In this document: piece by piece, positions 3,397 through 35,231 of the stretch
How positions within the stretch are numbered: the stretch's first letter is position 1
Layout: every line of letters starts with the position of its first letter
Virus record (IMG/VR): IMGVR_UViG_3300020047_008563
DNA: 35,231 nt
DNA from: a virus
Strand: one strand, 5' to 3'
Program-made: the position numbers and the translations under genes
The notes under the pieces: generated by a model
Seen by the model: only the letters and a program-made list of their open reading frames with translations
Told to the model about the DNA's origin: nothing
Databases searched by the model: none

Positions 3397-3584
3397 TTCA
3401 ATAGCTCCCAGTAACATTTTTTACACACATCACAATTGCTCGAACCAAAACTGAAAATGACTTCATCTTCTTTAAATATCTTTGCACAATGCGTGCATTT
3501 ATTGGCGCGATCCTTTTTACCCTTTATATTAAAATGCAAATTCTTCCTTCTCGAACCGCCCCACTTTACGCCTTGGTCTTTCAT
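3393..3584 (-). CDS. Small zinc-ribbon-like protein (63 aa)
   Basis: ATG at 3584 in ATGA overlap with 3581-3805; CTHC ... CDVCKKC motif pairs. Confidence 0.6.
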   Translation of the reverse strand: MKDQGVKWGGSRRKNLHFNIKGKKDRANKCTHCAKIFKEDEVIFSFGSSNCDVCKKCYWELLK

Positions 3585-3805
3585 TTCGTTGCCCTCCAAG
3601 CAATCACACGGCGCCCTGAAACCAAACATTCACGATGAAAATCGCCATGAATAAGCTTTTTTTGACGTAACTCTGAAACCCTTGGGGTCACACTTTCGCG
3701 TGGCCAATCCAAAATGTCGCCAATCTCTGCGTTGGTTACACCATTTTTTTCCGAATACTCCTTGATAATATCAATGACCTGTTGCTGGTTGTTGTTAAGC
3801 TTCAT
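3581..3805 (-). CDS. Winged-helix (MarR-like) DNA-binding protein (74 aa)
   Basis: VIDIIKEYSEKNGVTNAEIGDILDWPRESVTPRVSELRQKKLI followed by a wing-like SGRRVIAWR; ATGA coupling on both sides. Confidence 0.65.
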   Translation of the reverse strand: MKLNNNQQQVIDIIKEYSEKNGVTNAEIGDILDWPRESVTPRVSELRQKKLIHGDFHRECLVSGRRVIAWRATK

Positions 3806-3975
3806 GCGTTGCCTGCTTTCATGATGGCATCTACAACTTCGCCAGTTGATAATGAAACCGTGACGACTTCACCGTTTTTCATCACAAGTTTTGTATGTGT
3901 TTTTCCCAAATGGGATTCGTGGATTTCTTCGATTTGCTCAATGTCTATGTTCGACAAATCTTTGCGTGTATCCAT
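3802..3975 (-). CDS. Small hypothetical protein (57 aa), first gene of the accessory cluster
   Basis: Track start at 3990 is TTG. The ATG at 3975 lies exactly 6 nt after a TATTGT -10-like hexamer, the same geometry as two other first genes. Confidence 0.55.
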   Translation of the reverse strand: MDTRKDLSNIDIEQIEEIHESHLGKTHTKLVMKNGEVVTVSLSTGEVVDAIMKAGNA

Positions 3976-3981
3976 TTGGGT

Positions 3982-4009
3982 ACAATACAATATATTACAT
4001 TTAGATCAA
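3982..4009 (-). promoter_or_regulatory. Sigma70-like promoter candidate PA (TTGATC-16-TATTGT) containing a TGTA-pentamer array
   Basis: Minus strand reads TTGATC taaatgtaatatattg TATTGT acccaa ATG; sits in the 36-nt gap between the o-spanin stop and the 3975 start. Confidence 0.5.
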
Positions 4010-22862: not shown

Positions 22863-23002
22863 TTTCGGTCTCCTAGTTAGGTCAAATTGTTAATTGGGTT
22901 TTTCGTGCGTGTCTTCGCCCAAAACAAATGACTTCAGAGACCGCTGTATGCGTGCGGTGAGAAAACGGTTGACTTCGTTAAAAGTATTACATGAGTGCTT
23001 TT

Positions 23003-29233: not shown

Positions 29234-29419
29234 TTAGCGCAATCCGCGTCGTTTCTTTTGTTTTTGATCTTGTTCGATCAAGAATATGATGAACAGGCCG
29301 CCCAATAAAAAAATCAGGATATAGGATGGAATGAATACAGCCCACCAAGAGACTGAAACGCCACACACCTTTGTGATGATGAGGCCTGCTTGAAGCAAAC
29401 CAAAGAAACCCAATCTCAT
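29234..29419 (-). CDS. Two-TM small membrane protein (61 aa) with basic C-tail
   Basis: LGFFGLLQAGLIITKVCGV and WWAVFIPSYILIFLLGGLFIIFLI, then QKQKKRRGLR; ATGA coupling to the RHH gene. Confidence 0.6.
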   Translation of the reverse strand: MRLGFFGLLQAGLIITKVCGVSVSWWAVFIPSYILIFLLGGLFIIFLIEQDQKQKKRRGLR

Positions 29420-29601
29420 GACTTAACCTTCTTCAGAGCTTTCCCATTTTTATTTTCTTGCCGTTTTTTCTCCAAAAAATCATCTAAAGCTTCTCTCATA
29501 TACACTGACTGGGGGACAGAGGTTAGTTTAGAGAGTTGCTGTAGTTCGTCTTTTACATCTTGAGAAAAATAAAATGTTATGCTCTGAAGATTCTTTGCCA
29601 T
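29416..29601 (-). CDS. Ribbon-helix-helix (CopG/Arc-like) DNA-binding protein (61 aa)
   Basis: SITFYFSQDV (beta strand), KDELQQLSKLTS (helix A), VPQSVYMREALDDFLEKK (helix B); ATG 6 nt after a -10-like hexamer, no SD. Confidence 0.7.
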   Translation of the reverse strand: MAKNLQSITFYFSQDVKDELQQLSKLTSVPQSVYMREALDDFLEKKRQENKNGKALKKVKS

Positions 29602-29607
29602 GATTTA

Positions 29608-29636
29608 TACATACAACACATTACAATATATGTCAT
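29608..29636 (-). promoter_or_regulatory. Sigma70-like promoter candidate PB (ATGACA-17-TATGTA) containing a TGTA-pentamer array
   Basis: Minus strand: ATGACA tatattgtaatgtgttg TATGTA taaatc ATG(RHH); the -35 overlaps the RusA stop codon. Confidence 0.5.
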
Positions 29637-32228: not shown

Positions 32229-32891
32229 TTACCTCACGCTCACACGGGTTACTTGTTGGAATACAATTCCAGGCACATCTTGACGCTCACTTTTAAACGT
32301 CTTCACAAGGGCATTGAGCTTTTTCTCATCAACGCACAGATACTCAAGGGGCACTTTTGACTTATCTGCAACAGCCCACTCCCAAACCAAAGACTGAGCA
32401 ATCATTGTGTCGGATGTGCGTATCGTTTGGCGTAACGAGTTTGGATCATAGTTTTGTAATGAATTAACCTGAGCCTTTGCCAATGCGGCAATAGGAGACT
32501 CTTCGCCGGAAATGAACGCCTGCTTATCAAGTTCGGCCTGTTTTGCCTTAGCCTCCGCCAACATCTCTTGACGTTTTTCTTCAGCCTTTCTGATTTCCTC
32601 TTGGCGCTTAGAATCCATGTAAGCACCCAGGTTTTTCCTTAAGGTCGCTTCAACTTCGGTAAAAGGACGCAGCGCATCTCTGCATTTTGCCTCAAAATCA
32701 GCTAAAATGCGTTTCTGGGGTCGGATAAATTCATCACGAAACCCATCCATCTGCTTTTTTCTGAGGTTTATTTCACCCAAACGGTCTGTTGCAACCTGAG
32801 CTTCAAAATCGTTCGTTATAGGCGATTTTATCCACTCGGTTAGGTTTTGGGTGTTTTTAAGTTCTTGGGGTAAGTTCGGTAGTGTTTCCAT
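32229..32891 (-). CDS. Coiled-coil protein (220 aa), first gene of the recombination block
   Basis: GAAGGA SD; long charged helical centre (RQEEIRKAEEKRQEMLAEAKAKQAELDKQ); Gp157/DUF1351-like only by impression. Confidence 0.5.
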   Translation of the reverse strand: METLPNLPQELKNTQNLTEWIKSPITNDFEAQVATDRLGEINLRKKQMDGFRDEFIRPQKRILADFEAKCRDALRPFTEVEATLRKNLGAYMDSKRQEEIRKAEEKRQEMLAEAKAKQAELDKQAFISGEESPIAALAKAQVNSLQNYDPNSLRQTIRTSDTMIAQSLVWEWAVADKSKVPLEYLCVDEKKLNALVKTFKSERQDVPGIVFQQVTRVSVR

Positions 32892-32903
32892 AGTTCCTTC
32901 TGT

Positions 32904-32931
32904 ACATTACAATACAACATATTAACTACAA
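32904..32931 (-). promoter_or_regulatory. Sigma70-like promoter candidate PC (TTGTAG-16-TAATGT) containing a TGTA-pentamer array
   Basis: Minus strand: TTGTAG ttaatatgttgtattg TAATGT acagaaggaact ATG; overlaps the stop of 32922-33194. Confidence 0.5.
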
Positions 32932-34046: not shown

Positions 34047-34105
34047 AGTGTTCTCCACTGCCCTCTTTCCTCAGGCGTCGGTTGAGTCTTGATTGACTCG
34101 ATAAG

Positions 34106-34137
34106 TACATTACAACACATGTGATTATGTATTGCAA
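34106..34137 (-). promoter_or_regulatory. TGTA-pentamer array PD with possible TTGCAA -35 element
   Basis: Minus strand: TTGCAA tacataatcac ATGTG TTGTA ATGTA c; shares the exact 11-mer TTGTAATGTAC with PC; about 60-nt leader to the 34046 ATG. Confidence 0.4.
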
Positions 34138-34165: not shown

Positions 34166-34717
34166 TTATTTCATCGCTTTTGGTGAGATAAGTGCTTTTT
34201 GAACTGTTGCATTTTTTGCAAGAGTTGAGTCGGATTCTTTTAATGCTTTACGTTTGGCCAATATTTGTTTCCTTCGCAGTTTTGCATATTTTGCGACTTT
34301 ATTTTTATTGCTGTGTTTATACGCCAAAGTTCTAATGTTATTACAAAGGCGGCAAAATGTGGCGTTCTTGCTAATTATTATGTTTTTTTCAACCCATTCG
34401 TGACCATGGCGGCAATGGGTTCTTGGTGGTGAGATGGCGTGTTTAAATGCCCATGCGCGTGCAATGTTAACTGAGCGTGTAACTGTTTCTAAATGAGAGG
34501 GATTTACGCAGTCGCGTACTCGACATAAATGGTCTAACTCTAAACCGTTTGGAATTTTACCTTTGTAATGTTCATAAAAAATTCTATGAGCTGCCTTTTT
34601 TTTATAATCTTTCCCTGGCGCTACTCGCGCATAACCATCTCTACATAGACTTGAAGCCCATCTCATACATCCATTGAAATCTGTAATATAGTTTTGAAGT
34701 ATTTCTTTTAATTCCAT
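34166..34717 (-). CDS. HNH homing-type endonuclease (183 aa) with C-terminal zinc-finger-like region
   Basis: CMRW...DGYARV...AHRIFYEHYKGKIPNGLELDHLCRVRDCVNPSHLETVTRSVN is the classic HNH_3 pattern; then HCRHGHEW...CRLCNN. Confidence 0.85.
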   Translation of the reverse strand: MELKEILQNYITDFNGCMRWASSLCRDGYARVAPGKDYKKKAAHRIFYEHYKGKIPNGLELDHLCRVRDCVNPSHLETVTRSVNIARAWAFKHAISPPRTHCRHGHEWVEKNIIISKNATFCRLCNNIRTLAYKHSNKNKVAKYAKLRRKQILAKRKALKESDSTLAKNATVQKALISPKAMK

Positions 34718-34723
34718 TTTGTA

Positions 34724-34751
34724 ACTATACTGCGCCGTGACTTGGTGTCAA
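34724..34751 (-). promoter_or_regulatory. Near-consensus sigma70 promoter P1 (TTGACA-16-TATAGT)
   Basis: Minus strand: TTGACA ccaagtcacggcgcag TATAGT tacaaa ATG(HNH); no SD between the -10 and the start codon. Confidence 0.6.
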
Positions 34752-35110: not shown

Positions 35111-35231
35111 ATAGGCTTAAACGCTTCACATTCAAGGCCGTGAGGAACGGTAGCACGCCACGTAGTTGAGCGCAATACGTGAAATCTTGAGTGGGGCGGC
35201 CAAAAAATAAGTCGTTTCGACGGTTTTGTGA
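35111..35231. repeat. Terminal direct repeat, right copy (identical to 1-121)
   Basis: Same 121 nt as positions 1-121. Confidence 0.95.

Follow-up and report, generated by a model that had tools for sequence, protein, structure and literature searches.

The phage genome and its array sites

The window, by which the whole stretch of 35,231 nucleotides analyzed here is meant, begins and ends with an exact 121-bp direct repeat (bases 1-121 are identical to bases 35111-35231), from which the window could be deduced to be complete, representing a genome of 35,110 bp that is terminally redundant or was assembled as a circle. The minus strand carries all credible genes of the phage, and non-coding DNA accounts for 4.9% of the genome (1,743 nt). 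The gene content includes TerL, portal, and capsid genes, an internal-virion-protein-like gene, and an SU10-type adaptor. PHROGs and Pfam scans of 50 of the ~57 predicted proteins, which include all early and large ones, revealed neither an RNA polymerase nor a sigma factor, and no known RNA families or tRNAs were found in the genome. A megablast search gave no close relative among cultured phages, for which TerL matches show only 24-26% identity, and metagenomes contain many relatives of 35-39 kb with terminases that are 45-66% identical. The phage belongs to an uncultured, podovirus-like family that is known only from metagenomes. A host search in genome contigs returned matches solely to metagenome bins of doubtful assignment.

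Four intergenic gaps, referred to as sites A to D, hold arrays of short tandem repeats on the gene strand, each directly 5′ of the first gene of a block. The small early genes lie behind site B, exonuclease and recombination genes behind site A, a packaging and structural block led by an RHH gene behind site C, and an accessory cluster behind site D. The original prediction had listed four minus-strand strings and placed each at the head of a gene block; all four strings are present as described, and the description of the gene blocks holds. The arrays are as follows, with PWM scores from the matrix described in the next section.

32903..32922, minus strand: site A array, ATATG TTGTA TTGTA ATGTA, then C at 32902 (PWM 24.8; 5-nt-shifted copy 18.3)
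34106..34120, minus strand: site B array, ATGTG TTGTA ATGTA, then C at 34105 (PWM 23.4)
29608..29631, minus strand: site C array, ATATA TTGTA ATGTG TTGTA TGTA, with two overlapping motif copies
3981..4000, minus strand: site D array, ATGTA ATATA TTGTA TTGTA, then C at 3980 (PWM 24.5; upstream copy 13.1)

The site A array takes up most of the 30-nt gap between a 90-aa gene and the exonuclease-like gene (ATG at 32891), and the array of site B overlaps the -10 element of a predicted early promoter. The two copies at site C are C1 (29631-29617) and C2 (29621-29608, with a 1-nt deletion), and the array ends 6 nt before the RHH start codon, spanning the predicted spacer and -10. The distance from the array to the ATG is 11 nt at A, 6 nt at C, and 5 nt at D, and approximately 60 nt to the first ATG at B. 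Only at A does the array abut a Shine-Dalgarno sequence.

Sequence and statistics of the array motif

The repeat unit of the arrays is (A/T)TGTA, which occurs in three to five tandem units per site in strict 5-nt phase. Alignment of the sites gives the 15-mer consensus ATRTRTTGTAWTGTR, of which there are five copies, two of them overlapping at site C. All five lie on the minus (gene) strand at the four sites, within non-coding DNA. Likewise, the pattern AT[AG]T[AG]TTGTA[AT]?TGT[AG] has five minus-strand matches, all in sites A-D, and none on the plus strand.

With 200 dinucleotide-preserving shuffles as the baseline, the phased units show a strong excess over the genome, confined to the minus strand and to sites A-D. 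TGTA pairs at 5-nt phase occur three times on the minus strand and not at all on the plus strand, against a shuffle mean of 0.26; three phased TGT[AG] units are observed three times (0.005 expected), and four phased T[GA]T[AG] units also three times (0.0 expected). The phased-TGTA matches fall exclusively in the four sites, all of which are in the 4.9% of non-coding DNA. When this non-coding DNA alone (1,743 nt) was shuffled, the observed count of phased units was reached in 0 of 2000 shuffles. Furthermore, a leave-one-out PWM trained on three sites ranks the held-out site 4th among 70,434 positions, right behind the training sites. The TGTA array family is far beyond chance. The next-best match, at 2203, was considered as an additional array member and was taken as chance, as its PWM score is 12.9, compared to 23-25 at the sites, and it lies within a gene.

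The 11-mer TTGTAATGTAC, which had been predicted to be exact at two sites with one mismatch at each of the other two, is indeed exact at A and B (32912-32902 and 34115-34105) and has one mismatch at D (3990-3980); at C, the best match is TTGTAATGTGT, with two mismatches rather than one. A look-alike upstream of the capsid gene (22983-22994), proposed as a weaker member, drops out of the family, being absent from the top PWM matches and belonging to a separate promoter-like site, TTGAAG-17-AATACT. This site lies in a 140-nt gap before the capsid gene (23010-22863, minus strand), has an upstream TG, and ranks 7th on the sigma70 matrix used below. A strong terminator-like hairpin is found 3′ of the capsid gene (21633-21608).

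Promoter candidates and predicted start sites

The sigma70 consensus was applied here as an assumption and may not be that of the host. The following candidates were obtained at the four sites, together with the promoter of an HNH endonuclease gene, which lies outside the array family and serves as a comparator.

32904..32931, minus strand: site A, weak promoter candidate, TTGTAG 32931-32926, 16-nt spacer, TAATGT 32909-32904
34102..34137, minus strand: site B, predicted early promoter, TTGCAA 34137-34132, 17-nt spacer, TGTAAT 34114-34109
29601..29636, minus strand: site C, predicted promoter of the RHH-led late block, ATGACA 29636-29631, 17-nt spacer, TATGTA 29613-29608
3975..4009, minus strand: site D, predicted promoter of the accessory cluster, TTGATC 4009-4004, 16-nt spacer, TATTGT 3987-3982
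34717..34751, minus strand: HNH endonuclease gene promoter, TTGACA 34751-34746, 16-nt spacer, TATAGT 34729-34724

Among 35,195 gene-strand positions scored with the sigma70 matrix, from which the host consensus may differ, site D ranks 9th, site C 23rd, and site B 38th. Site A ranks only 120th-250th: its candidate TTGTAG-16-TAATGT has a score of 5.1 and rank 250, and an alternative, TTAATC-17-TATGTT, has rank 120. The view that every array fills the spacer and -10 region of a sigma70-like promoter candidate is partly supported, site A being weak. At site C, an alternative promoter, TTTAGA-18-TATATT, has its -10 at 29630-29625 (rank 23), and the -10 that fits the orthologous geometry, TATGTA, is without the usual final T. 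The predicted promoter of site B has a TG at -15/-14, and its predicted +1 is A34102, the first base of a leader, ATCGAGTCAATCA, that is conserved in the relative L003.

The position of the arrays relative to the -35-like hexamers is also regular. Counted from the hexamer, the array end lies exactly 23 nt downstream at A (TTGTAG, ending in ATGTA), C (ATGACA, ending in ATGTA), and D (TTGATC, ending in TTGTA), and A and D share the same layout of a hexamer, 3 nt, four pentamers, and a C. The register of the array at B is 3 nt off compared to that of the other three sites.

At sites C and D and at the HNH gene, 6 nt separate the -10 (TATGTA, TATTGT, and TATAGT) from the ATG at 29601, 3975, and 34717, respectively, which would make the A of the start codon the +1; leaderless transcripts are therefore predicted. 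The HNH, RHH, and first accessory genes, which have the -10 at exactly this distance, are without a Shine-Dalgarno sequence, and site D passes a filter for the leaderless geometry. In the window and related loci, a qualifying promoter with its -10 ending exactly 6 nt before an ORF-opening ATG was found in 10 cases, against ~2.7 at other distances, and the same spacing is seen at the RHH gene of the relative L003 (L003:7890-7925). The start sites predicted from these geometries are A34102 for B, ~32898-32896 for A, A29601 for C, and A3975 for D.

Several features around the early region can be described in their own right. The predicted early transcript (34102-34040, minus strand; L003:4685-4740) opens with a conserved ATCRAGTCAATCA and could form a hairpin at its 5′ end (GAGUC-AAUCAA-GACUC); the folding of the 60-nt leader is better than that of shuffled sequences (z = -2.6). 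A 14-codon mini-ORF (34046-34002) lies between this leader and the first real gene. The HNH endonuclease gene (34166-34751, minus strand; phrog_826, E 2.8e-41) has no counterpart at that position in L003 and carries the only near-consensus sigma70 promoter of the genome, which ranks 1st of 35,195 and contains no TGTA array. The gene has the appearance of a self-contained mobile element inserted upstream of the early promoter. The ~500-nt non-coding stretch from the genome end to the HNH promoter contains a terminator-like hairpin with a 12-bp stem and a T-run (34971-34944, minus strand).

Strain variants and related phages

The comparison set consisted of 80 IMG/VR loci together with L003 and L005, with 45-61% terminase identity and ~1.1 Mb in total. 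Looked for in related phages, as the original prediction had proposed, the motif is kept in strain variants, and no phased array occurs on the gene strand in the ~1.1 Mb of relatives, in which two are found on the opposite strand. A 10-mer half-motif is present at chance frequency in all relatives except L003. In a scan of IMG/VR, the 17-mer common to A and D gave 83 single matches in unrelated contigs, many of them giant-virus bins; these have neither protein similarity to the window nor a second array and were taken as chance. Judged from these comparisons, the array motif is species-specific.

In the strain variants (95-99% identity), all array sites are kept. A 97%-identical genome (L090) has arrays B and D unchanged, with different bases just outside B, and site C is identical in all strain variants (L006-L010 and L095), with a varying coding sequence upstream. 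In strain variants of site A, 6-7 flanking or degenerate positions change around an invariant core. A second haplotype of this site has seven substitutions in the 34 nt that separate the ATG from the -35-like hexamer. Two of them convert ATATG TTGTA into ATATA ATGTA and correspond to the degenerate R and W positions of the motif, and none of the seven falls in the 15-nt core TGTATTGTAATGTAC, for which our own combinatorial estimate gives a chance of ~0.01. This pattern of substitution indicates that the TGTA cores are under selection. The number of repeat units is constant in the strain variants (L006-L010, L090, and L095), which differ by point substitutions only, and this constancy speaks against the arrays as a phase-variable microsatellite (contingency locus). 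Whole cassettes are replaced among the strain variants L006-L010, L090, and L094, at window positions 30305-29633 and 3595-2442, and several metagenome contigs break off at most a few hundred bases from A and D, which suggests mosaic junctions close to the arrays.

The nearest relative, L003, has a terminase that is 61% identical and is syntenic with the window from the RusA-like gene onward. Its gap between the RusA-like and RHH genes holds TTGACT-17-TACATT, 6 nt, and the ATG, which is the positional counterpart of site C. The early promoter of L003 reads TTGCAA-17-TATATT, 6 nt, and then ATCAAGTCAATCA, compared to TTGCAA-17-TGTAAT, 6 nt, and then ATCGAGTCAATCA at site B. By this conserved geometry, B and C are identified as putative promoters. 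Since the counterparts in L003 are without the TGTA array, the array would not be needed for a promoter at those positions.

A distinct spacer motif, ATTGTG(A/T)GCAC (ATATATTGTGAGCAC / TCTAATTGTGTGCAC), is common to the two L003 promoters and located at -29 to -15. At the early promoter, as well as at L003:565, this motif is preceded by ATRTATTGT, which is the 5′ half of the window motif as well. Similar to the TGTA array, the L003 motif lies between the -35 and -10 of the matching early and RHH promoters, and at the early promoter it has the 5′ half ATATATTGT in common with the window array. Its 3′ half, in contrast, is a GTGnnCAC quasi-palindrome in place of the further TGTA pentamers of the window, and the motif is positioned one helical turn upstream of the copy at site B. 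Sigma70 itself does not specify the spacer sequence, and a shared spacer motif therefore points to a bound factor. The spacer motifs of L003 and the window suggest a bound factor whose specificity has drifted. The RHH protein of L003 is very different, being too diverged for confident alignment, and the motif is partly different, in what is a single comparison. A rule by which each phage would have its own shared spacer motif was not retained, as a pairwise intergenic k-mer scan was too noisy beyond L003. L003 also contains a tandem 10-nt repeat, AAATGTACAC, present three to four times at L003:2330-2380 and including TGTAC, which is located at the called start of a 294-aa gene or upstream of it and has no counterpart in the window; it could represent iterons or another operator array.

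Candidate binding proteins

Two small proteins encoded behind the arrays were considered as candidates for the bound factor.

29416..29601, minus strand: RHH protein, 61 aa, first gene behind site C (Pfam RHH_3, E 4.7e-11)
3581..3805, minus strand: 74-aa protein, second gene behind site D, second candidate (sub-threshold HTH / winged-helix matches)

Both had been named as possible common regulators, one as an RHH and the other as a winged-helix protein, and the two assignments fare differently. The RHH_3 domain is genuine, with 42.9 bits compared to a curated cut-off of 21.6, and the protein has a weak match to 7by2, a solved CopG-family regulator. For the 74-aa protein, the Pfam matches HTH_Crp_2 (E 0.004), HTH_24 (E 0.0087), and Sigma70_r4 (E 0.0099) are all below the cut-offs, and its single-sequence AlphaFold model has a pLDDT of 54 and is unusable. 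Both proteins are orphans in the searches performed. Homologues of the RHH protein outside its own species were not found in 5.8 billion proteins or in IMG/VR, and a local HMM and tblastn search of the 80 related loci and L003 recovered just L003 and weak noise. The 74-aa protein likewise has no homologue beyond its own species in 5.8 billion proteins and no similarity to a GerE-like protein of L003. The RHH protein is the best candidate for the array binder, a link that is drawn because of the adjacency of its gene to site C and by analogy with the systems described below.

Parallels with known regulatory systems

Operators shared between promoters are already established in phages and plasmids, and those made of tandem pentamers and bound by RHH proteins are among them. 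In phage lambda, CII sites (TTGC-N6-TTGC) are present at three promoters, and the late promoters of phage P2 are Ogr-dependent. The present arrays resemble these systems in that one phage protein would act at several dispersed promoters by means of a short repeated element whose position relative to the core promoter is fixed. CII and Ogr, however, are activators with sites at or upstream of the -35, whereas the arrays lie over the spacer and -10, where repression would be expected.

By analogy, the closest parallel is the ArtA regulon of the S. aureus plasmid pSK41. ArtA is an RHH protein that binds ACATGACATG, which consists of two tandem pentamers and recurs at six promoters, among them that of the regulator itself; binding occludes sigma (PMC2777438). 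The likeness lies in a small RHH protein encoded in the element and in dispersed tandem-pentamer operators that overlap a core promoter element. There are also differences: ArtA sites overlap the -35, whereas the phage arrays cover the spacer and -10, contain three to five pentamers of another repeat sequence, and belong to a phage rather than a plasmid, with binding being a prediction here. Moreover, ArtA and the phage RHH protein have no sequence similarity.

Very short repeats arranged in arrays and read cooperatively by RHH dimers are also known from partition systems. ParG of TP228 reads degenerate ACTC 4-bp boxes with AT-rich spacers (PMC3130281), and omega of pSM19035 coats 7-bp heptads, of which at least four contiguous repeats are required for full ParA-ATPase activation (PMC9499535). 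The repeats of omega and ParG have a 7- or 8-bp period, occur in mixed orientations, and have a centromere role, whereas the phage arrays have a 5-bp period with all units direct, and the phage has no partition genes.

A proposed shared operator and its alternatives

The explanation that we favor, and to which we give an even chance, is that the four sites are sigma70-type promoters with an embedded operator for one sequence-specific protein, probably the RHH protein, resulting in coordinated and autoregulated repression. Four host-type (sigma70-like) promoters would start the four core transcription units of the phage, and the tandem (A/T)TGTA pentamers that make up the spacer and -10 of each would constitute the operator. 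One sequence-specific DNA-binding protein would coat the repeats and compete with RNA polymerase for the spacer and -10 DNA, so that the four units would be controlled together through the shared operator. If the binder is the RHH protein encoded behind site C, it would regulate its own synthesis as well. Some features do not fit easily. A single repressor on all four units leaves their temporal order unexplained, the core promoter at site A is weak, and the register at B differs by 3 nt. For the RHH protein in particular, 5-bp units lie on opposite faces of the helix and are more tightly packed than in the RHH arrays known so far (7-8 bp), and it may be the 10-mer that is actually bound.

The alternative that survives best, although unlikely, is an intrinsic promoter class in which the array is read by RNA polymerase itself and no dedicated repressor exists, recognition being due either to the host polymerase alone or to one that a small phage factor redirects, by sigma appropriation or as a sigma-like protein. 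The TGTAW repeat would supply a -10-like TAWTGT every 5 nt and an easily melted TG/TA-rich spacer, and the -10 candidates TAATGT, TATTGT, and TGTAAT all derive from the repeat. An array is found on every core promoter candidate, with the HNH gene, missing at that position in L003, as the sole exception. The constant spacing of -35 hexamer and array end at A, C, and D is consistent with such a class, as is the faint Sigma70_r4 match of the 74-aa protein (E 0.0099). Nevertheless, PHROGs and Pfam reveal no phage RNA polymerase or sigma factor among the 50 of ~57 proteins scanned, and the L003 counterparts have the ordinary -10 hexamers TATATT and TACATT. In addition, the C1 copy resides purely in the spacer (-30 to -16), the register of B is shifted by 3 nt, and the core hexamers are weaker than those of the consensus promoter that the phage itself carries.

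Compared to the intrinsic class, action of the arrays at the RNA level is a distinctly smaller possibility. UGUA repeats in a read-through polycistronic mRNA would bind a translational repressor or another RNA-binding protein, and control of this type is known from T4 RegA and from TRAP, which acts on 5-nt-phased (G/U)AG repeats. Several properties of the arrays speak for such a mechanism. Every copy is found on the coding strand, the spacing between array and ATG is 11 nt at A, 6 nt at C, and 5 nt at D, no terminator separates these three sites from the genes upstream, and the arrays are C-free with repeats in 5-nt phase. At B, however, the first ATG is ~60 nt away, and the conserved promoter geometry places the array upstream of the predicted +1; the C and D transcripts are predicted to be leaderless, which would leave the array outside them. 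The fixed 23-nt distance to the -35-like hexamers would be meaningless for RNA, and as for an RNA-binding protein, none was identified, a KH_5 match (E 0.027) being below threshold.

It is similarly improbable that the arrays bind a global regulator of the host, which would tie the phage promoters to a physiological signal of the host. The idea gains from the fact that neither phage candidate could be linked to the motif and from the species specificity of the latter, as host-range-linked features can be species-specific. When the arrays were compared by eye with consensus sequences of known bacterial regulators, no fit was found to LexA, Fur, TyrR, CpxR, PhoB, marbox, ArcA, or OmpR, and relatives from the same samples are without the motif, both of which speak against a host factor.

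A further reading, for which we see equally little probability, regards the arrays as the recognition element of a phage-specified transcription programme rather than as simple repressor sites. Assembling along the 5-bp-phased repeats over the spacer and -10, a small orphan protein (the 74-aa HTH protein or the RHH) would hand the host RNA polymerase to otherwise weak promoters, or would switch the polymerase off in an order set by how many units each array has. If true, this would be a new way to mark 'self' promoters in a phage without a polymerase, and the spacer motif of L003 would be a second specificity of the same system.

The weakest reading, that the arrays are conserved module-boundary linkers for cassette exchange between co-infecting strains, is very improbable: genes upstream of C differ between the window and L006-L010 around an identical 70 nt holding C, L090 has 3595-2442 replaced downstream of D, and metagenome contigs break near A (L006-L010) and near D (L094), but homologous recombination would have very little sequence to work with in 15-24 nt, deletions would be favored by having four copies in one genome, module boundaries are where promoters normally lie in any case, and the fixed -35-like spacing is left unexplained.

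Implications for the phage family

With the shared operator as the preferred reading, the analysis provides a regulatory map for an uncultured phage family, comprising four predicted promoters with their predicted start sites, a putative operator common to all four, and two orphan proteins as candidate regulators. The motif, which is short and sharply defined, is specific to the species, and a comparison between the phage of the window and L003 would offer a cheap test of how an operator and its regulator diverge. Moreover, the array together with its binder could serve as an orthogonal repressor-operator pair.
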